From: Bacteroidales bacterium
GTDB taxonomy: Bacteria; Bacteroidota; Bacteroidia; Bacteroidales; UBA10428
Length of the DNA stretch: 64,000 nt
Reading direction: 5' to 3'
Assembly: GCA_041737295.1 (NCBI GenBank)
Contig: JBGSSA010000220.1
Location: forward strand, 32,170 to 96,169
The stretch's first letter is position 1, and the number at the start of each line of letters is the position of its first letter. Under the pieces are notes generated by a model. The model saw only the letters and a list, made by a program, of their open reading frames with translations, was not told the origin of the DNA and searched no databases. The translations under genes were made by a program, and so were the position numbers. Positions 12,449 to 26,139 of this stretch are shown piece by piece.

Positions 12449-14791
12449 TTACATGCGGGCATTTTGTTTCGCCAGCCTGGCATATTCCGCCGAGGATTTC
12501 AAATCTTTGAGACGACTGTATTCAAGAGACAGCCGGTTAAGGATGACCGGATCGTTAATATTTCCGGGAACCAGTTCTTTAAGTGTTTTTCGGGCTTCGC
12601 CCGGAAGATTTTGTGCTATGTAACAATCTGCAAGATTCACATAGGCTTCATAGAATCCCGGGTCGAGTTCAATCGTTTTTGAGAATGCCCTGATTGCCTC
12701 AGGATAAAGGCGAAGGAGAAAAAGTACCCTGCCACAACTGTTGTGGTATCTTTTATTTTCAGGATTCAGGTCGATGCACTTCTGATAACTACCCAATGCT
12801 TCCCTGAATTGCCTGTTACCTTCAAACGATTTTCCAAGGTAATAATAAGACTCTGCATGATTCGGGTTCACTTCAACACATTTCCGGAAATAGCTTTCAG
12901 CCAGCTGAAAGTTTTTCCTGGTCAGGTTATAGCCACCCAGGCTGATTAGCGCTTCAAAATTTTGATTGTTGTATTCCAGGCATGTCATCATCAATTCATT
13001 GGCTTTGTCTGCCTGCTTCAATTGCGCATACCGCATGGCCATCCGCACATAGATTTCAGCTATTTGAATGTTGCTGGTCCCGGCTTTTTTGAAAAAAACT
13101 CCCGCTTCCCTGTTGTTATTCTCCACGATACTGATTTTTCCAAGCTCCTCAAATACCTGCCTGTAACCGGGCAGGATATTCAACGCCAGGGTATAATTCT
13201 CTTTTGCCTTGCTATAATTTTCATCAAGCTGGTACACATAGCCAAGATTAAAATATAAAGAAGCCATTTGGGGTACCTCTTCTTTCAGTTCCGTAAGCGT
13301 TTGAATTATTTTCTTATGCCGTTCCGGAAAGTACTTAATTTGAAACAGTGCATAATTGTACCGGATGAGCCAGTCATGCTGACTCTGAAGAGATTTAATG
13401 TAGCTGGATTCAAGCAAATTTGCATCAACCATGGAATCTGCAAAATTCGTATTGATTTCATGCAGTCTTTCCAGGTCTTCAACATGTGTTAATTGCTGAA
13501 TAAATGGTGCTTTGGTATACCTGAGTGTCACATCCTTAAATATCTCCGATTCTTCATATTCATTGAATGCCAGTTTGCTTTTACAGAATTCAACGGAAGG
13601 TGCCGGTATGGAAGTTGAAAGCCTGAGGGCCTTCTTAACCGCCATGGCAAGATTAACCGCCAATACATAGTTACCCCTGAAATTAAAATGCACGTGCTCA
13701 TAAAAAAGATCATAACCGGGTATGCCATTTTCGGCAGAAGACCTTATAACATTTTCAAAGTCGAGCAGGTGTATCCGGGAGGTATCACTTTCCCTGTAAA
13801 CTTCACGTGTAATACCGTTTATCCTTGTATCTGCCCTGAATCGCAATACATCGTAATCTCTTGCTTTTACAAAATATTTATATGCCATATCAGTGTTTCC
13901 TGCCTTCAGGTATTCGTTTGCCTTTTCAAAGCAAAGATCCGCATCCTGAATAACTCCCAAACTGTCCCTGGAAGTGCCATGCACCGAACCAAAGGGCGCG
14001 CAGTCACGAAGGTTTGAAGCTACAGTGCATAAAATCACCGGGGACTGGCTTTTTTCCGAAGCCTTACACATTCCCCGGAGGTTTTCCCGGTATACCTTAT
14101 AAACATCGTCCAGCCGGGGATCATCCCAGGAAAGTTTATGCTTGAGGTACATTTCCATGCCTTCCCATCTGGCAGGCATTCCGCCCGATTTTCCCAGTTT
14201 TTGTCCGAGCTGCCTGGTGAGTTGCCCCACCCTTGTGGAATTGATGGCAATCGATGTCCTGATTAACCAGGGATCTTTCATGAAAGGAAGAAATGCACTT
14301 GTCGGCCCGTATGGTCCAATTACCTCATTGTTGCCAATATAAAAGATAAACAGGTCGGGATCTTGTTCAGTGCATTCCCTTACAATTGGCAGGATCACAT
14401 TCGAGTTAATGGCGGTAATGGCTGTATTGATGACCTCAAAATTTTTCTCCGGAAATTGCTCTTTTAAGATAGCCTCCAGTATTCTTCCCGCACCATATGA
14501 ATAATCCGGATCACCCATAACCGCTGATTCACCGGCAATAAAAATGCGAAAGGTATTTTTCTCCCTGACCTTATCCATTACGACAGGCATCGGGGTCCTT
14601 ACAAGACGTTCAGAAAAAAATGGAATGGTGTAATCCACATTATTGATCAGCACTTTTTTCCCCTTCAGTTCCTTTTCAATAAAAAATTTGGGAGAAAACC
14701 CTGCACCGGAAATCCTTAATATGCACTCAGTCAGAAATAACAGCATGAGTGTTACCGTAACAATGATCAATATGTCTTTAGCGATTTTCAT
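12449..14791 (-). CDS. Membrane-anchored SGNH-like hydrolase domain fused to C-terminal TPR repeats
   Basis: N-terminal TM segment ILIIVTVTLMLLFLTECIL. FRIFIAGESAVMGDP and IFYIGNNEV resemble SGNH blocks I and III, with GES in place of GDS. The C-terminal half contains repeated TPR-like A..Y/F..A...P patterns (YFNLGYVYQ, YYYLGKSFE, YVNLADCYI). Confidence 0.6.
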   Translation of the reverse strand: MKIAKDILIIVTVTLMLLFLTECILRISGAGFSPKFFIEKELKGKKVLINNVDYTIPFFSERLVRTPMPVVMDKVREKNTFRIFIAGESAVMGDPDYSYGAGRILEAILKEQFPEKNFEVINTAITAINSNVILPIVRECTEQDPDLFIFYIGNNEVIGPYGPTSAFLPFMKDPWLIRTSIAINSTRVGQLTRQLGQKLGKSGGMPARWEGMEMYLKHKLSWDDPRLDDVYKVYRENLRGMCKASEKSQSPVILCTVASNLRDCAPFGSVHGTSRDSLGVIQDADLCFEKANEYLKAGNTDMAYKYFVKARDYDVLRFRADTRINGITREVYRESDTSRIHLLDFENVIRSSAENGIPGYDLFYEHVHFNFRGNYVLAVNLAMAVKKALRLSTSIPAPSVEFCKSKLAFNEYEESEIFKDVTLRYTKAPFIQQLTHVEDLERLHEINTNFADSMVDANLLESSYIKSLQSQHDWLIRYNYALFQIKYFPERHKKIIQTLTELKEEVPQMASLYFNLGYVYQLDENYSKAKENYTLALNILPGYRQVFEELGKISIVENNNREAGVFFKKAGTSNIQIAEIYVRMAMRYAQLKQADKANELMMTCLEYNNQNFEALISLGGYNLTRKNFQLAESYFRKCVEVNPNHAESYYYLGKSFEGNRQFREALGSYQKCIDLNPENKRYHNSCGRVLFLLRLYPEAIRAFSKTIELDPGFYEAYVNLADCYIAQNLPGEARKTLKELVPGNINDPVILNRLSLEYSRLKDLKSSAEYARLAKQNARM

Positions 14792-14802
14792 AACCTCCCT
14801 GG

Positions 14803-16698
14803 TTATTTCTTAACAATTTTTGTTACCATGTTGCCATTCACTGCCAGAATATACATGCCTTTTGCCAGGTTTTCCACGTGCAGGTTAACTTTCTGAGAAC
14901 AGAAAATCCGGTTATATACGCTTTGTCCGGTCAGGTTAACAATGGAAATAGTGTTTCTGCCTTCTAGGTTATCAACAATTAATGAATTATTGAAAACCGT
15001 GGGATAAACCCTGATAGCTGAAAGGGTATTCGGCCTGACAGCTGAAGGGATTATCTTTTGTTCAAACACAGCAAAACCATAATAGTCGGTCCATCCCCAG
15101 TTACGGTTCCATGGTGAATTCCAGCTTGTTATCAGTTCTCTTGAAAGTCCGGTCTGGTTAGCAGAGTCACCCAATATAAACAAATCGCGGTCAGTAGAGT
15201 ATAGGTCAAAATGGATGACCGCATCTTCTCCAGGTTTAATTACATTAGCTCCTGGTACATCAGGAACAAGGATCGAAAATGGGATACGGGCTTCGAAAGT
15301 ATAACCAACACCCTCATTTACGACGGTTTTTGTTGCATACCCCTTATCCTGCCGGTTATCAACACCCATTACCCAACCTCCCCCGGTGATTGTATCTGCA
15401 TAAGCAGTTGGATCAGGCCACATGCGCAACTGGGATGCATAGTCATGTGACCAGGGGCCCTCTGTTACATCGGGTGCAGCAAACAGTGTAAAGAGTTCAA
15501 TATTATCACACCAGTAAGGCTGTGTCTTTGCAAGGGTTCCGTCTTTTTCAGGATAAGTCTGATCCATTACGGCACTGTAAGGGATGAAAGATTCGTCCGT
15601 TACATCAGCAAAGAAATACAGATTTTCGGCATCCCACGCCAGTTTAAAATTAAGCCCGTAATCTGCGGAAGGAGTTAATGGCAGCAGGGAATCAATTGTC
15701 CATGCATTTGTAACATCATTGGTCACGGGAGTGGCCTCAATCTGTGACCAGAAAGGCTCATCCGCTTTTCCATCAATGGTTACAACAGCGCCATCGGGTA
15801 CACCGGGAATATCTATTGTCTTGAGATCCTGGAGTTTTGCTGTCAGCGTTGCTGATCCGTAATAATCCGTAAAGCCCCAGTTACGGTTCCATCGTGAATT
15901 CCAGGCCAATAAATCTTCCCTGAAATGGGGACTTGCCTTATTGTATGAATTATCGAGAATGAGCATATCCCTGTCGGCAGCGTTTAGATCCAGCTGAAAA
16001 ATTGCTCCTTCCACTGGCTGTATAGCTTGTGCCAGCGAATCATCAGGTACAACAACTGAAAAAGGGATTTTTGCTTCAAATGTGTACCCTTCGCCTACAT
16101 TAACAACTGTTTTGGCCTTATACCCTTTTTGCTGCGGATAGTCCACTCCAATTACCCAGCCTCCGCCGGTAATACTATCAGCATAGGCTGTTAAATCGGG
16201 CCACATACGAATTTGCGAGGCGTATGTGAGTATCCAGCCTTCAATATAGTTGTTGGGAGCAAACAGAGTAAATAATTCAAAATTGTCACAATAATTAAAC
16301 TGTGTAGTTTCAATTGTTCCATCCGGGTTGAGGTAAGTCTGATCTTTAACATCACTGTAAGGGATAAATGATTCATCCCTTACTTCAGCAAAGAAATAAA
16401 AATTGGCATCATCATACGCCATTTTCCATTTTACATTAAAGTCGGAATCAGTTAATGAATCCTTCACACAACGCATTTCGTCTATCGTCCAGGCATTTGA
16501 AATGTCGCGGAGGCAACTCTGGAATGGGATAAGCTTCCAGAAGCCTTCGTTCGCCTTTCCGTCAATGGTTACATTAACACCATCAGGCACACCCGGAATA
16601 TTTACAGATTTGCGTAAGGTGTCGTTGCAAACTTGTGTAAAACCTGTGGTGATACCTATAGAAAGCAATGTTGTCAATAATAGAAACTTCCTTTTCAT
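14803..16698 (-). CDS. Double CBM9-like module protein with T9SS C-terminal domain (tandem paralog B)
   Basis: Signal peptide, two internally repeated ~270-aa modules (each IPGVPDG..VTIDGKA.E.FW ... NAWTID ... YFFA.V.DESFIPYS ... CDN.ELFTLFA ... YASQ.RMWPD ... GYTFEA.IPFS ... WNRNWG) and a CTD (IRVYPTVFNNSLIV...GMYILAV). It lies in the SusE/F position downstream of SusCD. Confidence 0.7.
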   Translation of the reverse strand: MKRKFLLLTTLLSIGITTGFTQVCNDTLRKSVNIPGVPDGVNVTIDGKANEGFWKLIPFQSCLRDISNAWTIDEMRCVKDSLTDSDFNVKWKMAYDDANFYFFAEVRDESFIPYSDVKDQTYLNPDGTIETTQFNYCDNFELFTLFAPNNYIEGWILTYASQIRMWPDLTAYADSITGGGWVIGVDYPQQKGYKAKTVVNVGEGYTFEAKIPFSVVVPDDSLAQAIQPVEGAIFQLDLNAADRDMLILDNSYNKASPHFREDLLAWNSRWNRNWGFTDYYGSATLTAKLQDLKTIDIPGVPDGAVVTIDGKADEPFWSQIEATPVTNDVTNAWTIDSLLPLTPSADYGLNFKLAWDAENLYFFADVTDESFIPYSAVMDQTYPEKDGTLAKTQPYWCDNIELFTLFAAPDVTEGPWSHDYASQLRMWPDPTAYADTITGGGWVMGVDNRQDKGYATKTVVNEGVGYTFEARIPFSILVPDVPGANVIKPGEDAVIHFDLYSTDRDLFILGDSANQTGLSRELITSWNSPWNRNWGWTDYYGFAVFEQKIIPSAVRPNTLSAIRVYPTVFNNSLIVDNLEGRNTISIVNLTGQSVYNRIFCSQKVNLHVENLAKGMYILAVNGNMVTKIVKK

Positions 16699-16748
16699 AA
16701 TATGATTGTTACCGTAACAATGATCAATATATCCTTATCGATTTTCAT
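16695..16748 (-). pseudogene. Duplicated fragment of the 5' end of the SGNH/TPR gene, readable as a 17-codon uORF (MKIDKDILIIVTVTIIL*)
   Basis: 16708-16748 matches 14751-14791 at 38 of 41 positions by hand alignment, and the homology extends to 16702 / 14745. The uORF's TGA stop overlaps the ATG of paralog B as ATGA (16695-16698). Confidence 0.7.
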
Positions 16749-16792
16749 CTTTTCAGGAAATAGAATCCGGGATTGAAAAGTACCTGCTTAAT

Positions 16793-16823
16793 ATAAAAAA
16801 GGCCATGTACAAAGTACACAGCC
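16793..16823 (-). terminator. Candidate intrinsic terminator after tandem paralog A
   Basis: Minus-strand RNA GGCUGUGUAC-UUU-GUACAUGGCC forms a 10-bp stem including two G-U pairs (16801-16823), followed by UUUUUUAU (16800-16793). It lies 22 nt after the stop at 16845. Confidence 0.5.
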
Positions 16824-16844
16824 TTTTTTATTAAACCGATCGTG

Positions 16845-18746
16845 CTATTTCTTAATAATCTTGGTTACTGTATTGCCATTCACTGACAGGATATACATGC
16901 CTTTTGCCAGATTTTCCATATCCAGGTTGACTTTCTGGGCGGAGAAATTCCGGTTATATACACTTTGTCCGGTAAGGTTTACAATGGAGATAGTGCTGTT
17001 GCCTTCGAGGTTATCTACCGTTAATGAATTATTGAATACGGTAGGATATACTCTGATAGCTGAAAGAGTACTCGGCCTAATCGCAGTAGGATTAAGCTTA
17101 TCTTTTAATACGGCAAAACCATAATAATCTGAGAATCCCCAATCACGATTCCAGGGTGCATTCCAGCTGGCGATAATTTCTCTGAAAAAAGGAGAAGCCT
17201 TGTTCGTTGAATCATCTAAAACAAGCATATCCCGGTCTGCCGGATTTACATCAAGCCGGAATATTGCGTCCTTAACCGGCTGAACTGCATGTGCTCCGGG
17301 AACATCGGGGACAATGATTGAGAAAGGAATACGTGCTTCAAAGGTATAACCAACGCCATCTGTAACAACGGTTTTAGTTGTATATCCTTTATCCTGCTGA
17401 TTTTCAACACCGGTTACCCATCCTCCGCCGGTTATGCTATCACTGTAAGCATTCAACTCAGGCCACATGCGAAGCTGGGAAGCATAGGTAAGGGACCACG
17501 GACCTTCAATAACATCAGGCGGGGCGAACAAGGTGAACAATTCAATGTTGTCGCAATAATAAAACTGGGTTTTACCAATAGTGCCGTCATCATTAAGATA
17601 TGTTTGATCCATCACATCACTGTATGGAATAAAAGATTCGTCCGTCACATCAGCAAAGAAATAAAGGTTTTCGGCATCCCATGCCATCTTGAAATCAAAT
17701 CCAAAGTCATCGGAAGGTGTTAATGGCAATAAACCATCCACTGTCCAAGCGTTGGAAACATCATTCAACACGGGGGTAGCTTCAATCAGCGACCAGAAAG
17801 GTTCGTCCGCTTTTCCATCAATTGTAACTGCAGCGCCTTCAGGTACTCCCGGTATGTCGATGGCTTTGAGATCCTGGAGTTTGGCTGTCAGTGTTGCTGA
17901 TCCGTAATAATCTGTGAATCCCCAGTCGCGGTTCCATCGTGAATTCCATGAGAGTATTTCTTCCCTGAAAAAGGGGTCTGCCTTACTTGTTGAATCGTCC
18001 AGAATGAGCATATCCCTGTCAGCAGGGTTTAGATCAAGCTGAAAAGTTGCTCCTTCTACAGGCTGTATGGCATGTGCTCCCGGCACATCAGGTACTACAA
18101 CTGAAAAAGGGATTTTTGCTTCAAATGTATACCCTACGCCATCTGTAACAACCGTTTTGGTCATATACCCCTTTTGCTGTGGATTGTCAACTCCGACTGC
18201 CCAGCCGCCACCGGTAATGCTATCTGCATAGGCTGTCAAATCGGGCCACATGCGCAATTGCGATGCGTAAGTAAGTGACCAGGGACCTTCTATAACGGAG
18301 TCGGGGGCAAACAAGGTAAATAATTCAAGGTTGTCACAATAATAAAACTGAGTAGCAGCAATTGTTCCATCAGCATTCAGGTAAGTTTGATCTTTAACAT
18401 CACTGTAGGGGATAAATGATTCATCCGTCACTTCAGCAAAGAAATAGAAATTGGCATCATCATAGGCCATTTTCCAGTTTACATTATAATCAGAATCAGT
18501 TAAAGAATCCTTCACACAGCGCATACCATCAATAGTCCAGGCGTCAGAAACATCGCGGAGGCAACTCTGGAAAGGGATAAGCTTCCAGAAACCTTCGTCT
18601 GCTTTACCGTCAATTGTAACGGAGACACCCTCAGGCACACCAGGAATATTAACAGACTTGCGTAATGTGTCGTTGCAAACCTGGGAATACCCTGAATTGA
18701 AAACCATTGAAAGCAATGATGCAAATAGTAGAAATTTCCTTTTCAT
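16845..18746 (-). CDS. Double CBM9-like module protein with T9SS C-terminal domain (tandem paralog A)
   Basis: Same architecture as 14803-16698, with high amino-acid and nucleotide similarity along the whole length. It starts 50 nt after the SusD stop. Confidence 0.7.
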   Translation of the reverse strand: MKRKFLLFASLLSMVFNSGYSQVCNDTLRKSVNIPGVPEGVSVTIDGKADEGFWKLIPFQSCLRDVSDAWTIDGMRCVKDSLTDSDYNVNWKMAYDDANFYFFAEVTDESFIPYSDVKDQTYLNADGTIAATQFYYCDNLELFTLFAPDSVIEGPWSLTYASQLRMWPDLTAYADSITGGGWAVGVDNPQQKGYMTKTVVTDGVGYTFEAKIPFSVVVPDVPGAHAIQPVEGATFQLDLNPADRDMLILDDSTSKADPFFREEILSWNSRWNRDWGFTDYYGSATLTAKLQDLKAIDIPGVPEGAAVTIDGKADEPFWSLIEATPVLNDVSNAWTVDGLLPLTPSDDFGFDFKMAWDAENLYFFADVTDESFIPYSDVMDQTYLNDDGTIGKTQFYYCDNIELFTLFAPPDVIEGPWSLTYASQLRMWPELNAYSDSITGGGWVTGVENQQDKGYTTKTVVTDGVGYTFEARIPFSIIVPDVPGAHAVQPVKDAIFRLDVNPADRDMLVLDDSTNKASPFFREIIASWNAPWNRDWGFSDYYGFAVLKDKLNPTAIRPSTLSAIRVYPTVFNNSLTVDNLEGNSTISIVNLTGQSVYNRNFSAQKVNLDMENLAKGMYILSVNGNTVTKIIKK

Positions 18747-18796: not shown

Positions 18797-20464
18797 TTAA
18801 TACCCTGGAGCTTGCTCACAAAGCGGATTAGCGGCAATTTCGCGATTAGGAACCGGCCAGCAGGCTGCCCTGGACGTATAGGTGCGTCCGGTTAGCCTGC
18901 ACTCCTCTTCGGCTATGTCCCACCGAACCATATCAAACCACCGTACCTGTTCACCGATGAATTCTTTTCGTTTTTCGGCTCTCAAATAGGTTCTGAAATC
19001 CTGGGGACTGCCTGAAGAATAATCGTAGGGTGATACTTCATCCTCGTAATATCCGTATGCGCGGCGGGTAACCTTATTCAACAATTGTATCGCCTTGTTT
19101 ATATCACCACCGCCTTCTATAAGGGCTTCGGCATATAAAAAGTAAACTTCAGCCACCCTGAGAACTACCTGATTTTCATCGCCCACATCGGTTGCCATGC
19201 CCTGTGCGTTGTTGGCATCCCTGAGATGGTTAATGTATTTTTTTGGTGAATTTTCTGTTTTGTTACTGTATTTGTAGGGAGCCATTTTGTTTGGCAGTCC
19301 GTCTTTGTAAAGCATCACGGAATCCCTGCAAACAATTGTTTTACCATGGAAAATGATAGTATCGGCATAGTTTGGGGAATTAACTTCCGCATCATAAAAA
19401 TGAAATCGGGATTCCACTTTCCTGATATCATATTTTTTGAAATCAAAGAAAAGCGTGTCCCTGACGCTTACATTACCGCGACCCATATCCGGACCTCCGC
19501 TGTAAATCTGAAAGTGAGATCCTGTACCCCCGCCCTGCCATGGGTTGGTAGTCACCAGATCCCCAAACTGAACTTCAAACAAGGATTCACAGGAGTTTTC
19601 AAATTCACCACCGTGGAAATTATCTCCATAATAGGCCAGTAATCCTTTGTAGTTCATACTTGCAGCACCAACATCACAATAGTTTTGTGTGAATTCTTCA
19701 AATTGTGTGATCGCTTCCGCATATTTCTTTTCAAAAACAAGCGTTTTTCCAAGCATTGCCAGGGCCGAAGGTTTAGTGGGCCTTCCCAGCTCTGTATCAG
19801 GTAAATCGATCGGATCAGGAAGCAGGGATTTTGCCCTGGCAAAATCACTTTCAATGAGAGCATACACTTCAGAGGGTTTTGACCGGGCCTTCTTAATTGC
19901 ATCCCTGGTGTCAACAACCTCGGTGTGGACTACCACGCCCCACTGATCATCTCCATCAAAAGGACGTCCCCATACGTGCAGCAAATAAAAATAAGACAGT
20001 CCCCGCATAAAATAAGCACTCCCCAGAATTCTGTCCTTTTCATCTGCCGGCATATCATCAATGGTGCCCGCATTTGTTTCTATAATGGAAATAATACGGT
20101 TGGAAGAACTTATGGTGCTGTAAAAGGCCGAGTATAACCATCCGATAAACGGATTCACCGGTGACGGGTTGAGGTTCCACATTTCAAAATGATAGGGTCC
20201 CTCATTTACGGGTTCCTTAAACTCATACTCGCCGGCGCAATGGGATAAAAACAGGGGCCAGAAGTAGTTGTAACTTCCCGCATAATTATTAAACATGCCG
20301 ATGTCCAGTTTCCTTACACCTTCCGGATTGTTAATGTCATCCGTTGTTTGCATGTTCAATTGTTCAACCTGAAGAAAATCCTCGCAGCTTACACACAGGA
20401 CGAAGGCTGTTACTGCAGCGATCTTACATAATTTGGAATATATCGTTCTCATGTTTTGATTCAT
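18797..20464 (-). CDS. SusD/RagB family nutrient-binding outer-membrane lipoprotein
   Basis: Lipoprotein signal ...AFVLCVSCEDF. It lies immediately downstream of SusC. The size (555 aa), the C-terminal ...RWFDMVRW... and the ending ...NPLCEQAPGY are typical of the SusD family. Confidence 0.9.
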   Translation of the reverse strand: MNQNMRTIYSKLCKIAAVTAFVLCVSCEDFLQVEQLNMQTTDDINNPEGVRKLDIGMFNNYAGSYNYFWPLFLSHCAGEYEFKEPVNEGPYHFEMWNLNPSPVNPFIGWLYSAFYSTISSSNRIISIIETNAGTIDDMPADEKDRILGSAYFMRGLSYFYLLHVWGRPFDGDDQWGVVVHTEVVDTRDAIKKARSKPSEVYALIESDFARAKSLLPDPIDLPDTELGRPTKPSALAMLGKTLVFEKKYAEAITQFEEFTQNYCDVGAASMNYKGLLAYYGDNFHGGEFENSCESLFEVQFGDLVTTNPWQGGGTGSHFQIYSGGPDMGRGNVSVRDTLFFDFKKYDIRKVESRFHFYDAEVNSPNYADTIIFHGKTIVCRDSVMLYKDGLPNKMAPYKYSNKTENSPKKYINHLRDANNAQGMATDVGDENQVVLRVAEVYFLYAEALIEGGGDINKAIQLLNKVTRRAYGYYEDEVSPYDYSSGSPQDFRTYLRAEKRKEFIGEQVRWFDMVRWDIAEEECRLTGRTYTSRAACWPVPNREIAANPLCEQAPGY

Positions 20465-20478
20465 TTTTATATGTAATG

Positions 20479-23400
20479 TTAGAAAGTAACCTGGGCACCG
20501 ATCATATAGGTTTTTGACTGGGGATAAATCCCGTTATCAAGAACCCTTTCTGTGTTTTTACCGCCGCCAATTTCCGGGTCCATGCCACTGTAATGCGTGA
20601 AAGTCAACAAATTCTGACCACTTAAATATATCCTTAAACGATTGATCCCAATTTTCTTCATCAATTCCTGCGGTAATGTATATCCGATGACCACGTTCTT
20701 CAGACGCATATAAGAACCGTCTTCCACAAAGTAAGAACTTGAGGTGGTGAGGTTTTTATTTGGATCCCCATAAGCAAGACGGGGCATTGTGGTGGAAGGA
20801 TTATCAGGAGTCCAGCGACCGCTGATTTTATTAGTAAAACTATAATCGCCGTAAGTGTTTTCATAAACACGTTTGGAAAGATTAAAGATTTCACTCCCCT
20901 TAACTCCCTGAATAAAGATCGTCATATCAAAACCCTTGTATTCCGCCGAGAGATTCACACCGTATACAAATTTCGGCCATGGATCGCCAAGCAGGGCCAG
21001 GTCGCTTTTATTGATAATACTGTCACCATTCAGATCACGGTATATCAGGTCACCCGGTGCGGTGTTTTTCGTGCTGTTATATTGTGCCCTGTTTTTAATT
21101 TTTTTCGCCTTGATCAGCCTTTGAACAATGGCCGCAGTATCTTCTGAAGTAGCCTGCCAGATGCCATCCACTATATACCCCTGGTATGAACTCATCGGAA
21201 GTCCGGGTGCTGTATAAAACTGGTTGAGTTCCCCTGCCGTAATAGTCTTATCGGCATTCAGTGATTCCACCTTATTCCTGTTGAATGATAAATTACCTCC
21301 AATGCTGTATGTAAAGTCGCCCTTGCTGCCCCTGAATCTTGCCTGGAGATCCAGTCCCTTGTTACTTACAGAACCCAGGTTTATCAGAGCACTGGCATCA
21401 TTGCCAAGACCTGCTGAGTTGGGCAGATCCACGGGAATCAGCATATCCTTGGTGTTCTTAATATAGTAATCTGCGTTAATTTCGAGCCGGTTGTTAAACA
21501 GCAACAGGTTAAAACCGGCATTTGTAGTGTAAACAGATTCCCATTGCAGCTCTTCATTGGCAAATACGTTGGGATTCATTCCCAGGCGAAGGCTGGAAAT
21601 ATCGTAGTTATTTCCAAGCACATAATAAATCTGCTGAGTTCTCAAAGTGGCCAGGTAGGGATAATTATTTTCGAATGAAGCATTGCCCACTACTCCATAT
21701 CCGACATGTAATTTAAGATCGGCATATTGAGCGAGTCCCGACATAAATGGTTCCTTGGTTAACCGCCATGCAGCCGATGCAGATGGAAACACACCTATCT
21801 TATTACCCCGGGCAAATTTTGATGTGCCATCTGCCCGAATGTTGAAGGTAAACAGGTATTTATCGGAGAAATTATAGGAAACCCTGCCAAATTCGGAGAT
21901 CCAACGGACCATATCACCCCGGTTGCCTTCCAGTGTGCGAAGTGTGGGATCTGTGTTTGTAAAGGTGATCTTTCCATTTTCAATATCCTCCCCGGCCATA
22001 TTATAATCATTGCCCGGTTCCTCATCAATCATTTCAAACCCGGCCATGGCTGTAATGCTGTGCATGCCAATCTTGAAATTGTAGGTCAGTACGGAGTTAC
22101 CCACGTACGAATCCCTTAACTTAAGGTTATGCTCCAGGCGGTCTTTATCCCTTGTGATATAGAGAAAGTCGTATCGTGAAAGATATAACGATCTGTCTTC
22201 AAAGCTGAAATTCCCTCCGAATGATGTTCTCCAGGTTAAGCCTTTGAAAGGTTTGATTTCCATATAAAGTGTCCCAACTACCCGGTATGTACGCTCTATC
22301 CGTGACTCCACATCTTCAATCCCAACAGGGTTAACATTTTGGAATCCATATTCACCAGTGAGCTGACCATAGTGTGTATAACTATGAGTTAACGTTTCAT
22401 CCATAACCTGCATAAAGGGATTTACCCGAAGCATGGTCTCATCACTCATTGCCTTCGGATCAGATTTAGTATAAGAGAGATTCAGCGAGTTACCTACACT
22501 CAGCCACTTTGAAATTTCATTATCGGTATTGAAATTCAGCGTAACCCTTTCATACGATGTTTTATAATAGGTACCTTCCTGTTTCAGATAGGCAATGGAG
22601 GAGTAAACCCGGGAAACTTTATTACCTCCTGAAAAATCCAAGGTATAATTCTGAAGAGAACCATTATGAAACAATTCCTTCATCCAGTCTGTACTTACGG
22701 GCAGCAGTGTATCAGGGTTTTGTGCAATTTTATGATATACCAGTGAATTTTTAAATCCGCCATTGATAAAACTTTCATCCTTGTATTTGGCATAATCATA
22801 TGAGTTAATCAGATCTGGCAAGCCCATGGGTGAGGTTATTCCCTGGTAGGTTGAAAAATTGATGAGTGGTTTTCCTTCCTTTCCCCTGCGAGTGGTTACC
22901 AGGATAACCCCGTTGGCACCCCGTGCTCCATAAATGGCAGCTGAAGATGCATCCTTCAGGATCTCGATGGATTCAATATCTGATTGATCATATTGTCCTG
23001 AAATAGGTACCCCATCTACAACCCATAAGGGATCAGTTCCATTCACCGAGCCGGGTCCGCGTACATAAATACTGGCATTCTCTCCCGGCTTGCCGCTTTT
23101 CTGCGTTACAAATACGCCCGATGCCCGACCTTGTATGGCCTGGTCAAGTGAAGTAACCGACAGCTTGTTCATTTCTTTTACATCCACTGTGGCAACCGCG
23201 CTGGTCAAATCACTCTTCCTTGTTGTTCCGTATCCAACCACAACTACCTCATCCAACTCCTCGATCTTCTCAACAAGCGTCATATCAATGAAAGACCTGC
23301 CGGCCACACCAACTTCTTCCGTCAGAAATCCAATAAAACTGAATACAAGAATTGCATCTCCGCCGGATACTGTAAGGGAATATCTCCCGTTCACGTCTGT

Positions 23401-23613
23401 CACCGTACCATTCAGTGTTCCCTTCTCCAAAATGTTTACTCCGGGAAGCGGCTGATCGTCGGTGGCCGATTTGACCACACCCTTGATGAGCAATTCCTGG
23501 GATGCCGCGGTATTTGCCTTTGCGGGTCCGTCGGCATGTACACTCATACTGGCTGGGAATAATAGATTGAGACTAAACAGAATTAACAGAACTGATCGTA
23601 ATAATCTTTTCAT
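20479..23613 (-). CDS. SusC-type TonB-dependent outer-membrane transporter
   Basis: Signal peptide, a carboxypeptidase-regulatory-like domain (IKGVVKSATDDQPLPGVNILEKGTLNGTVTDVNGRYSL), a plug (VVVGYGTTRKSDLTSAV; ILKDASSAAIYGARGANGVILVTTRRGK) and the C-terminal beta-barrel ending ...YMIGAQVTF. Confidence 0.9.
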   Translation of the reverse strand: MKRLLRSVLLILFSLNLLFPASMSVHADGPAKANTAASQELLIKGVVKSATDDQPLPGVNILEKGTLNGTVTDVNGRYSLTVSGGDAILVFSFIGFLTEEVGVAGRSFIDMTLVEKIEELDEVVVVGYGTTRKSDLTSAVATVDVKEMNKLSVTSLDQAIQGRASGVFVTQKSGKPGENASIYVRGPGSVNGTDPLWVVDGVPISGQYDQSDIESIEILKDASSAAIYGARGANGVILVTTRRGKEGKPLINFSTYQGITSPMGLPDLINSYDYAKYKDESFINGGFKNSLVYHKIAQNPDTLLPVSTDWMKELFHNGSLQNYTLDFSGGNKVSRVYSSIAYLKQEGTYYKTSYERVTLNFNTDNEISKWLSVGNSLNLSYTKSDPKAMSDETMLRVNPFMQVMDETLTHSYTHYGQLTGEYGFQNVNPVGIEDVESRIERTYRVVGTLYMEIKPFKGLTWRTSFGGNFSFEDRSLYLSRYDFLYITRDKDRLEHNLKLRDSYVGNSVLTYNFKIGMHSITAMAGFEMIDEEPGNDYNMAGEDIENGKITFTNTDPTLRTLEGNRGDMVRWISEFGRVSYNFSDKYLFTFNIRADGTSKFARGNKIGVFPSASAAWRLTKEPFMSGLAQYADLKLHVGYGVVGNASFENNYPYLATLRTQQIYYVLGNNYDISSLRLGMNPNVFANEELQWESVYTTNAGFNLLLFNNRLEINADYYIKNTKDMLIPVDLPNSAGLGNDASALINLGSVSNKGLDLQARFRGSKGDFTYSIGGNLSFNRNKVESLNADKTITAGELNQFYTAPGLPMSSYQGYIVDGIWQATSEDTAAIVQRLIKAKKIKNRAQYNSTKNTAPGDLIYRDLNGDSIINKSDLALLGDPWPKFVYGVNLSAEYKGFDMTIFIQGVKGSEIFNLSKRVYENTYGDYSFTNKISGRWTPDNPSTTMPRLAYGDPNKNLTTSSSYFVEDGSYMRLKNVVIGYTLPQELMKKIGINRLRIYLSGQNLLTFTHYSGMDPEIGGGKNTERVLDNGIYPQSKTYMIGAQVTF

Positions 23614-23783: not shown

Positions 23784-26039
23784 TTATTCCTTTACAGGTT
23801 GGCTGCCCATGTAGAAAATCAGGCTTCCTCCGTCATAAATTTCCTTATGGGTTATGTAACGCCTTTTCAGTAATTTGCCGTTTAACTCGACTTTTTGTAC
23901 AAAATGATTTTCTCCGGATAAATCCATAGCAACAACTTCAAATGGTATCTTTCCGGTTTGCAAAACTGCCCTGCCGATGACCGGTGTTCCCAGATCATAA
24001 TTGCCCGAAGCAGGGTTCACGGGATAAAAACCCAACGCGCTGAAAACGTACCACGCAGACATTTGTCCGCAATCCTCATTGCCACAAAGTCCATCAGGAG
24101 TGTCCTTATATAGTGTTGTCATTATATTTCTTAACCAATACTGCGATTTCCAGGCCTGATGAGTATAATTAAAAAGGTACGCCACCTGGTGACTTGGCTC
24201 ATTGCCATGAGCATATTCACCGATGAGCCCTGTAACATCAAGAGGTTTAGGATCACCGGTTGATGTTTTTTGGGAGAAAAGCTCATCGAGTTTTTTGCAA
24301 AATGCTTCCGGGCTTCCATACAAGGAGATGAGACCAGGCATGTCGTGGGGTACAAAGAAAGAATACTGCCATGAATTGCCCTCAATAAAATCAGAAGGTC
24401 CATAGGACGAAAAGGCCGGATCGAAAGGGCGACGGGGTTTGCCATCCGATGACCTTCCGTTCATGAGATTATACTGCGGGTCAAACAAATTTTTATAAGA
24501 TTGCGACCTCCTGATGAAGTAATGATAGTCTTCTTCTTTTCCCAATTCATTAGCTATCTGAGCAATACACCAATCATCAAAGGCATATTCAAGGGTTTTT
24601 GAAACGGATTTGTTATCCTTGTCAAAAGGAATATAGTTGTATTGCTTAAGATATTCTATCCCAAAATCATTCTGCATCGCACTTTTTTTCATCGCTGGAT
24701 AAAGTTGTTCCATATCGATGCCTGATAAACCTTTTAAATAAGCATCCGTAATAACGGGAATGGCATGGTAGCCTATCATGCAATTTGTTTCGCTTTCCCA
24801 TAAAGGCCATACCGGAAGCAATCCCGATTGTTCGTATTGATTCAGCATAGACTGGATCATATCGGGCACACGCTGTGGATGCATAATTGTATTAAGCGGA
24901 TTGGCTGCGCGGAATGTATCCCACAGGGAAAAAACAGTATAATTGGTATGTCCGTCAGCATGGTGAATTTTTTTGTCAATTCCCCTGTACCGGCCGTCCA
25001 CATCTGAAAAGGTATATGGAGCGATCATTGAATGATAAAGGGCCGTATAAAAAATTGTTCTTACTGATTCAGGCGCGTCCTCAATGATTATCTTTTCCAG
25101 CTCATTTTTCCAGGTATTTTTTGCTGCAGAAACCGTTTGATCAAATTCCCAGCCTTGGATCTCTTCCGAGAGATTTTTCAGGGCACCTTCAACGTCAACT
25201 GCGGATATTCCCACCTTAACCATAACCTGCTCACCTTCATGCGTGGAATATTTCACGTATGCCTTTAAATTCTGACCGGCTGCCTGCAAGTCTTTCTCCT
25301 GAAAAACATCATCCTTTACAATTCCCCTGGCAGAAAATGGTTTTGAAAAGGCTGCAGCAAAGAATATTACCTGGTCTGTAAAATCTTTCTCATTGCCTTC
25401 GCCCCAACCTCTTGACCGCCTGTATCCAGTGATCAGGCTGTCATTAACAAAGGTCAGTCCGGATTCTGTTACAGAATCCGTATCATACCCATGAAACAGA
25501 TCCAGGATAATATTTGCTTCTTCTGTTTCAGGAAAGGTGTAGCGATGAAATCCCCCATGTATTGTAGATGTAAGTTCTGCCTTTATATTATAGTCCTTTA
25601 AAAATACTGAATAGTAACCCGCACTTGCCACTTCATCGGCATGGCTGAACCTTGACCGGTAACCCTCATCCGGATTTTCACGTGAACCCGGATTCATCTG
25701 CAGTTTACCTGTTGTTGGCATGATCAGCACATCCAGCAGGTCCCCCCGACCTGTGCCCGACAGATGGGTATGGCTGAAGCCCATGATTGAACTGTCACTG
25801 TAATGGTAACCTGAACACCAGTCCCAACCTTTGGTATAGGTATCCGGACTAAGCTGTACCATGCCAAAGGGCAGTGTTGCGCCCGGAAATGTATGGCCAT
25901 GCCCGGCGGTACCGATTATTGGATTTACATAATCATATGGACGCTTCCTTTCACTTATCTTCTGTTTTGACTGACCGCAACCGAAAAAAAACACAAATAC
26001 GATCAGAAACAAGCCTGGTAATTTATTACTGGTAATCAT
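23784..26039 (-). CDS. GH92 alpha-mannosidase, lipoprotein
   Basis: The internal ATG at 26039 gives MITSNKLPGLFLIVFVFFFGCGQ (lipobox). GH92 blocks: VNPIIGTAGHGHTFPGATLPFGMVQLSPDT, GFSHTHLSGTG, NEDCGQMSAWYVFSALGFYPV. Confidence 0.85.
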   Translation of the reverse strand: MITSNKLPGLFLIVFVFFFGCGQSKQKISERKRPYDYVNPIIGTAGHGHTFPGATLPFGMVQLSPDTYTKGWDWCSGYHYSDSSIMGFSHTHLSGTGRGDLLDVLIMPTTGKLQMNPGSRENPDEGYRSRFSHADEVASAGYYSVFLKDYNIKAELTSTIHGGFHRYTFPETEEANIILDLFHGYDTDSVTESGLTFVNDSLITGYRRSRGWGEGNEKDFTDQVIFFAAAFSKPFSARGIVKDDVFQEKDLQAAGQNLKAYVKYSTHEGEQVMVKVGISAVDVEGALKNLSEEIQGWEFDQTVSAAKNTWKNELEKIIIEDAPESVRTIFYTALYHSMIAPYTFSDVDGRYRGIDKKIHHADGHTNYTVFSLWDTFRAANPLNTIMHPQRVPDMIQSMLNQYEQSGLLPVWPLWESETNCMIGYHAIPVITDAYLKGLSGIDMEQLYPAMKKSAMQNDFGIEYLKQYNYIPFDKDNKSVSKTLEYAFDDWCIAQIANELGKEEDYHYFIRRSQSYKNLFDPQYNLMNGRSSDGKPRRPFDPAFSSYGPSDFIEGNSWQYSFFVPHDMPGLISLYGSPEAFCKKLDELFSQKTSTGDPKPLDVTGLIGEYAHGNEPSHQVAYLFNYTHQAWKSQYWLRNIMTTLYKDTPDGLCGNEDCGQMSAWYVFSALGFYPVNPASGNYDLGTPVIGRAVLQTGKIPFEVVAMDLSGENHFVQKVELNGKLLKRRYITHKEIYDGGSLIFYMGSQPVKE

Positions 26040-26139
26040 GGCTATTGGAATATGATGTTTAGCCAATAAATATAAAGGGTTTAAAAGAAGCGAAAGAGGC
26101 TGAAAATGAAGTTGTATCATTCCCGCCCGCTTTTTGAAT

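Follow-up and report, generated by a model that had tools for sequence, protein, structure and literature searches.

A tandem-duplication scar in a Bacteroidales polysaccharide utilisation locus and the neighbouring leader that it may have captured

The 64-kb window analysed here (the whole stretch of DNA studied, from contig JBGSSA010000220.1 of an uncultured Bacteroidales bacterium) contains two adjacent paralogous genes, A and B, followed by a tetratricopeptide repeat (TPR) gene. The relevant genes all lie on the minus strand of the window. Between A and B stands a second copy of the first codons of the TPR gene, hereafter the relic, and its stop codon overlaps the start codon of B. The arrangement raises the question of how the beginning of a gene came to lie ahead of that gene's own upstream neighbour, and whether it now serves this neighbour. 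A preliminary description of the window had proposed a tandem-duplication scar with a visible join. Three lines of sequence comparison firmly establish this scar: a switch of homology at the motif TATT, the full-length alignment of A with B, and relatives that carry a single copy. As for the whole explanation, an old microhomology-mediated tandem duplication with a captured TPR leader that serves B is probable in our judgement. The features on which the argument rests are listed below; X denotes the single gene that corresponds to A and B in related loci, and L021, L022, L028 and L029 are such loci.

16845-18746, minus strand: paralog A, copy 1, 633 aa, CBM9_1 and Por_Secre_tail
14803-16698, minus strand: paralog B, copy 2, 631 aa, CBM9_1 and Por_Secre_tail
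12449-14791, minus strand: TPR gene, 780 aa, membrane-anchored, many TPR families in Pfam
16695-16748, minus strand: relic of the TPR 5' end, a 17-codon mini-open reading frame (mini-ORF), MKIDKDILIIVTVTIIL and stop, 43/47 identity
16699-16702, minus strand: join point TATT, from a three-way display of the X upstream region, the relic and the TPR gene
16749-16844, minus strand: ancestral X-to-TPR spacer of 96 nt, kept after copy 1, from alignment to L021, L022, L028 and L029
14792-14802, minus strand: shortened B-to-TPR spacer CCAGGGAGGTT, 11 nt, the remnant of a second spacer copy
16795-16829, minus strand: intrinsic terminator of A-tract, hairpin and U-tract, from folding and RNAalifold
16775-16782, minus strand: candidate sigma-ABfr -7 box TACTTTTC, 7/8 match to TAnnTTTG

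Positions 16702-16748 matched positions 14745-14791 without gaps, and 43 of the 47 sites were identical (91.5%); a hand count in the preliminary description had given 38 of 41 for this copy of the TPR 5' end. The match had an E value of 1.9e-12 within the window (blastn-short) and of 2.7e-12 across the whole 5.4-Mb assembly, in which the relic was the sole second match of the A-B spacer. The similarity is significant at the scale of the genome, and with this value and a unique element a chance match was ruled out. A dispersed repeat or a miniature inverted-repeat transposable element carrying the terminator was also ruled out, as no other genomic copies were found. The source of the relic is the first ~50 nt of the TPR gene (14738-14791). 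The relic keeps the conserved TPR start region TTTCCTGAAAAGATG, which is identical in L021, and the protein start MKI.KDI is kept in five relatives. The mini-ORF consists of an ATG at 16748-16746 and 16 further codons and closes with TGA at 16697-16695. With the ATG of B at 16698-16696, stop and start share the sequence ATGA (16698-16695) on one strand, which is the geometry of termination-reinitiation. Mini-ORF and overlap were confirmed from the sequence as they had first been described.

A and B align over their full length, end to end, at 79% nucleotide and 78% amino acid identity. Their upstream homology ends 4 nt before the ATG, at TATT; the loss of homology ahead of the two start codons had been recognised before as a visible join, although at a distance of about 6 nt. 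The TPR gene of L028 reads GTAACAATCATATT and continues as GTTATTGCTG; the relic reads GTAACAATCATATT and continues as ATGAAAAGG; the region upstream of A reads ACCAATTATT and continues as ATGAAAAGG. Within the relic, ACAATCATATT follows the L028 TPR gene as far as +54, and the switch falls exactly at the ATG of B. The TATT microhomology is common to TPR +51 to +54 (in the ancestral state, as in L028) and X -4 to -1, and these 3-4 nt sit in an imperfectly similar patch (AACAATCATATT versus AACCAATTATT), a join with the short homology of illegitimate recombination. The locus therefore holds two adjacent, co-oriented copies of one segment, with TPR +1 to +50/54 abutting X -4/0 between them. The alignments show a duplicated unit of ~2.05 kb from X -4/0 to TPR +50/54, joined head to tail at TATT, and so fix the boundaries that the preliminary description had left to alignment. 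The same comparison shows that copy 1 (A) keeps the ancestral context on both sides and that in copy 2 (B) the native upstream region is replaced by the relic. Read in the TPR frame, the join is ATA TTA TGA. This frame runs into the ATGA of X and stops, and the mini-ORF and its overlap therefore arose with the duplication itself.

Related loci were obtained from a metagenome scan with B and from look-ups of TPR homologues. Six of them carry a single X (L021, L022, L028, L029/L030 and L039), and in all six X is followed by a homologous hairpin, a spacer and then the TPR start. The TPR gene is full in each except L039, where only the first ~25 codons are present. In the nearest relative, L021, susD is followed by one X, then by a 97-nt spacer and the TPR gene; compared with the window, its SusD C-terminus is 93% identical in amino acids and its TPR gene 77% identical, and its X product shares 85.6% of residues with A and 83.5% with B. 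In L028 the gene order GH92-susC-susD-X-TPR is kept. Because six single-X loci have the same hairpin and spacer, the terminator and spacer after A are ancestral, and the comparison shows an ancestral layout of susC-susD-X, terminator, ~96-nt spacer and TPR gene.

The single-copy state, against which the preliminary description had proposed to check its model, was thus found, and it bears on that model in two ways. The scar, the join and the present layout as first drawn (susC-susD-A, terminator, former TPR leader, upstream ORF (uORF), B, TPR), with a terminator behind paralog A only, all stand. The idea that the duplication made the separate control does not, since the six single-X loci already had a terminator between X and the TPR gene and this boundary pre-dates the duplication. 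The two-copy state was not found in 41 relatives (TPR query), GTDB representatives or Joint Genome Institute (JGI) metagenome contigs, and a 5.8-billion protein set gave 12 homologues with no second B-type protein. Among the GTDB representatives, a related X gene was present in one species-representative genome only, a Bacteroidales metagenome-assembled genome (MAG).

The spacer lengths of 96 nt (A to relic) and 11 nt (B to TPR gene) agreed with those first reported. The A-relic spacer was identical to the X-TPR spacer of L021 at 80 of 97 positions, including an identical stretch of 45 nt around the terminator, and it aligned with the spacers of L022, L028 and L029. The hairpin has a 10-bp stem with a 3-nt loop (16823-16801), flanked by an A-tract (16829-16824) and a U-tract (16800-16795). 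It dominates the fold of a 161-nt region, for which the minimum free energy (MFE) was -42 kcal/mol (z = -4.55; 0 of 200 shuffles folded as well). RNAalifold over five loci returned 16 pairs and a core stem that was never broken. Three outer A-U pairs failed in one or two of the five loci, one stem pair changed on both sides, from AU to GC, in two of the five, and several one-sided changes were present. The terminator hairpin is backed by covariation and has the form of a Rho-independent terminator, a G+C hairpin followed by a U-tract and conserved with compensatory changes. A generic terminator scan did not list the 16795-16829 hairpin, and Rfam gave no curated RNA family, all matches being far below the gathering score.

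The 11-nt spacer between B and the TPR gene opens with CCAGGG like the single-copy spacer of L021, the first 6 nt being equal. Head-to-tail duplication geometry requires that a second copy of the 96-nt spacer once lay between B and the TPR gene. Only 11 nt are left there; ~85 nt, the second terminator copy included, were therefore lost in a later deletion, and the present spacer is what this deletion left.

The history that these comparisons show begins with an ancestor in which susC-susD-X was followed by an intrinsic terminator, a ~96-nt spacer and the TPR gene. A segment from 0-4 nt upstream of the ATG of X to TPR +50 to +54 was duplicated head to tail at TATT. Behind copy A this left the ancestral terminator and spacer and then the beginning of the TPR gene, 16-17 codons long. 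Copy B landed behind an existing terminator, TPR leader and TPR start codon, with the mini-ORF and the 4-nt stop/start overlap present from that moment. The later deletion of ~85 nt took the second terminator and left B 11 nt from the TPR gene. In the present locus, susC-susD-A transcripts may end for the most part at this conserved hairpin. B and the TPR gene may be expressed together from the former TPR promoter in the spacer, by terminator read-through, or both, and B may be translated largely by ribosomes that start at the TPR start of the relic and restart at the overlapping AUG.

Promoter candidates were assessed with the Bacteroidetes sigma-ABfr consensus, a TAnnTTTG -7 box with TTTG upstream (PMC7366714). 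A perfect -7 box, TAGTTTTG, occurs at 23665-23658 (minus strand), ~45 nt upstream of the susC start codon, and is likely the main promoter of the locus. In the A-relic spacer, the candidate TACTTTTC (16782-16775) matches at seven of eight positions and has TTTG 31 nt upstream, inside the terminator loop; similar motifs are found in L021 (TACTTTTT) and L022 (TATTTTTT). We infer only from these motifs that it is a putative promoter of the former TPR gene. The same scan found no comparable -7 box before A or before the TPR gene. A generic sigma-70 scan returned fewer sites than shuffles and is uninformative for Bacteroidota.

Bacteroidia ribosomes do not recognise Shine-Dalgarno (SD) sequences (PMC7797042, PMC6847099), and initiation in this class is favoured by A at -3, -6, -12 and -13 (PMC6847099). 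Paralog A has A at all four positions, against two of the four at B, at the relic and at the present TPR start. ATGA overlaps generally give strict coupling, and overlapping pairs in Bacteroidetes are without SD motifs (PMC6728339). Because such overlaps usually couple strictly and B has lost the A-rich upstream region, termination-reinitiation from the mini-ORF would be the most plausible route to translation of B. An SD-like GGAGG before the TPR gene is unlikely to matter, because Bacteroidia ribosomes ignore SD sequences and it sits 2 nt from the ATG. A stricter version, in which selection has long kept the relic (dS ~1 between the paralogs) as a working leader ORF and B, lacking any start region of its own, is translated only by reading of the 17 codons and restart, is possible but we hold it tentatively. 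If true, a single duplication step would have made a new coupled cistron regulated with the neighbouring gene, and the 85-nt deletion would later have completed a new uORF-B-TPR operon. In the same region, the spacer sequence CUUUUCA (16771-16777) is complementary to UGAAAAG both before the mini-ORF AUG (16751-16757) and across the AUG of B (16691-16697); the MFE fold pairs it with the start of B, possibly by coincidence.

Substitution rates indicate that both paralogs are under purifying selection. The ratio of nonsynonymous to synonymous change (dN/dS) was 0.13 between A and B (dS 0.99), 0.11 between A and the X gene of L021 (dS 0.75) and 0.10 between B and the X gene of L021 (dS 0.88). Since purifying selection keeps both copies, B must be expressed. 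Identity at four-fold sites was 0.51 for A-B, 0.59 for A-L021 and 0.52 for B-L021, and the flanking TPR and CBM9 genes gave 0.49 and 0.47 between the window and L021. By these values the duplication and the split from the nearest sampled relative are of roughly similar age, with a picture blurred by recombination or conversion. A maximum likelihood tree of A, B and the L021 X gene was a trichotomy (ultrafast bootstrap 70-75).

The X gene itself has a mosaic character. The last 150 nt of A (16848-16997) were identical to L021 at 142 of 150 positions (95%) and its first 100 codons (18447-18746) at 91% of nucleotides; at these gene ends B was 83-85% identical to L021, below the 91-95% of A, and the interior of A was 75-85% identical. 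Four-fold sites at the ends of A were 82-94% identical to L021, against ~50% in the gene interior and in neighbouring genes. Over codons 400-500, the L021 X gene was closer to B (88%) than to A (75%). Such a pattern suggests tracts of recombination or conversion, or else constraint at the nucleotide level on the two ends of the gene.

Against this background the relic is conspicuously conserved. It differs from the TPR gene of the window at 4 of 47 sites (0.085), ~11 times below the dS of 0.99 between A and B, and over the same 47 nt 11 sites separate the window TPR gene from that of L021. If sites matched at the four-fold-site identity of 0.51, at least 43 matches in 47 would have a probability of 3e-9; even with the whole-gene identity of 0.79 it would be 0.02. 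By these figures, the relic appears too well kept for a neutral scar of the age of the A-B divergence. Three explanations of its conservation remain: constraint on a leader, a short gene-conversion patch, or an A-B divergence that overstates the age of the duplication. The low divergence fits use as a leader, and a conversion patch or a younger duplication could fit as well.

The strongest competitor, which we consider rather unlikely, accepts the same duplication history and holds the relic to be without function. B and the TPR gene would be transcribed by read-through of a leaky terminator from the susC promoter, and B would start translation by itself. The relic would owe its similarity to a short gene-conversion patch or to a duplication younger than the A-B divergence suggests, that divergence having been inflated by intragenic module-to-module conversion or by allele import. 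Several observations speak for an inert relic and weigh against a captured leader in use. The 47-nt match is itself a mosaic. Its central 24 nt show no difference; of the four sites that differ, three place the window TPR gene with L021 and the relic with outgroups, and codons 11-12 place the window TPR gene with the relic. Such mosaic signals are what a short gene-conversion patch would give, and the X gene is mosaic too, with the ends of A near L021 and codons 400-500 of L021 nearer B. Because A, B and the L021 X gene form a trichotomy, the age of the duplication is uncertain, and with it the argument that the relic is too conserved; by the approximately unbiased (AU) test both an A+B clade (p = 0.27) and an A+L021 clade (p = 0.09) were acceptable. 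The candidate -7 box in the spacer is imperfect and is poorly kept in L028 and L029. B retains A at -3 and -12, which might allow some direct initiation, and the relic hairpin is not thermodynamically unusual (z = 0.16). On the other side, ~50 nt of homology with a perfect block of 24 nt is barely enough for RecA-type conversion to be expected. The spacer with its terminator is 82% identical between the window and L021, against ~50% at silent sites, which argues for a functional region, and B is without the A-rich upstream region that A has (-3, -6, -12, -13).

That B was not made in place, and is a diverged X allele from another lineage inserted into the TPR 5' end, is highly improbable. B is no closer to A (dS 0.99) than to L021 (dS 0.88) and the tree is a trichotomy, as such an import would have it, but an insertion would not make an adjoining copy of ~50 nt of its target, a length far above that of a transposon target duplication. 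The left edge of B lies 0-4 nt before its ATG at the TPR microhomology and CCAGGG follows B, which is head-to-tail geometry, and B is flanked by neither mobile-element genes nor repeats. A chance or compositional resemblance, or a MAG assembly artefact, deserves next to no credence, as the genome is indeed a 258-contig assembly but the match has an E value of 2.7e-12 against all of it and begins exactly at the ATG where a tandem duplication predicts, the contig is 252 kb long, and A and B differ at 21% of bases and therefore are not collapsed or mis-joined repeats.

To our knowledge, the joins of tandem duplications in bacteria are as a rule known only from laboratory evolution, because duplications collapse quickly. 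Promoter capture by tandem duplication is reportedly exemplified by the rnk-citT module of the Cit+ lineage in the long-term evolution experiment with E. coli (Blount et al. 2012, as cited in PMC11111574) and by Salmonella his activations (Anderson and Roth 1978). The present locus resembles these cases in that a head-to-tail illegitimate or microhomology join puts the second copy behind a promoter-proximal fragment of a neighbour, and in that a 5' fragment of the neighbouring gene remains at the join. The known captures are recent laboratory events under strong selection in which the captured promoter was shown to be active, whereas here the join is natural and old (dS ~1), in an uncultured bacterium, and the promoter is a candidate. 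The captured start codon was, unlike in the laboratory captures, kept as a mini-ORF overlapping the new gene, and the copy was subsequently joined to the donor gene by a deletion. Activation of transferred genes through promoter capture by tandem duplication has also been described in recent work on E. coli (PMC6614815, PMC11111574). We regard the scar as a natural example of duplication-mediated promoter or leader capture, with a putative use of the promoter, and as a natural counterpart of Cit+ type capture. The old join is legible base by base and the single-copy relatives supply the ancestral state, so that three ordered steps can be read: a microhomology join, capture of a terminator-proximal leader with its start codon, and a fusing deletion. 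The locus shows a route by which a glycan-binding surface protein can pass from a SusC/SusD unit to that of an accessory gene downstream. Should the mini-ORF be in use, SD-independent termination-reinitiation in Bacteroidia would have a clean test case in it.

Translationally coupled ATGA pairs act by termination-reinitiation (PMC6728339, PMC10666635, PMC12548453). The relic and B share with such pairs a 4-nt stop/start overlap on the same strand and, as is typical of Bacteroidetes, have no SD before the downstream gene; they differ in that a gene fragment of 17 codons takes the place of a full upstream gene and that the coupling here is a predicted one. A short ORF beside a terminator hairpin upstream of a structural gene also recalls the Thr operon leader attenuator (RF00506). 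In leader-peptide attenuators the order is different from that found here, where the terminator is upstream of the mini-ORF, and neither regulatory codon runs nor alternative hairpins are present. A leader-peptide attenuator was ruled out, the RF00506 match having 27 bits against a gathering score of 55 and lying on the opposite strand, with the terminator preceding the ORF. Intra-operon intrinsic terminators in polysaccharide utilisation loci (PULs) of Bacteroidota are another likeness, with SusC/SusD and a surface glycan-binding protein, a conserved hairpin with its U-tract and then accessory genes. In that setting the terminator is ordinary; it matters here as the ancestral boundary that the duplicate came to lie behind.

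The locus is a Bacteroidota PUL of the SusC/SusD type, in which, by Pfam matches, a SusC-like TonB-dependent transporter adjoins a SusD-like gene. Together, susC and susD are the upstream genes of the transcription unit, and the remaining features are as follows.

23784-26120, minus strand: GH92 gene
20479-23613, minus strand: susC, Pfam Plug and CarbopepD_reg_2
18797-20464, minus strand: susD, Pfam SusD_RagB

Paralogs A and B each comprise two CBM9-like modules; A also has a C-terminal sorting domain of the type IX secretion system (T9SS), and the Por_Secre_tail match is present in both. Pfam gave no SGNH match above threshold in the window's own TPR protein. Many homologues have precomputed GDSL-lipase matches (PF00657, PF13472), and the N-terminal region in homologues is SGNH-like.

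The relic also contains a perfect 8-1-8 DNA palindrome at 16705-16721 (ATTGTTAC-G-GTAACAAT), one of 12 of that size in the window, with 0.009 expected per 47 nt. In the live TPR gene (14748-14764) the palindrome is weaker, 6-1-6, and in L022 a different perfect 10+10 palindrome, ATTGTAATTGCAATTACAAT, occurs at the same TPR codons (2663-2682). A protein may bind the palindrome in the relic, or the palindrome may have been fragile and have favoured a breakpoint ~6-10 nt past its end. RNAalifold gave no consensus and the relic hairpin its z of 0.16, which ruled out that the TPR 5' coding region or the relic forms a conserved RNA hairpin.

Downstream of X and the conserved terminator, L039 (JBBQSY010000040.1, Bacteroidales MAG; 870-1260) has no TPR gene. 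The first ~25 TPR codons survive there inside a 52-codon ORF that begins MKRTKDIAFIILIVFGLLLLIEG, and a different, 396-aa gene with a T9SS tail follows. L039 is a second, independent case in which the module of terminator, leader and TPR 5' end persists and the gene behind it changes.

The X genes of L028 (7753-8871, 372 aa) and P0129 have a single CBM9-like module, and those of the window (A and B), L021, L022 and L024 have two, at ~630 aa. With one module in the former and two in the others, the X family has also undergone internal module duplication or loss.

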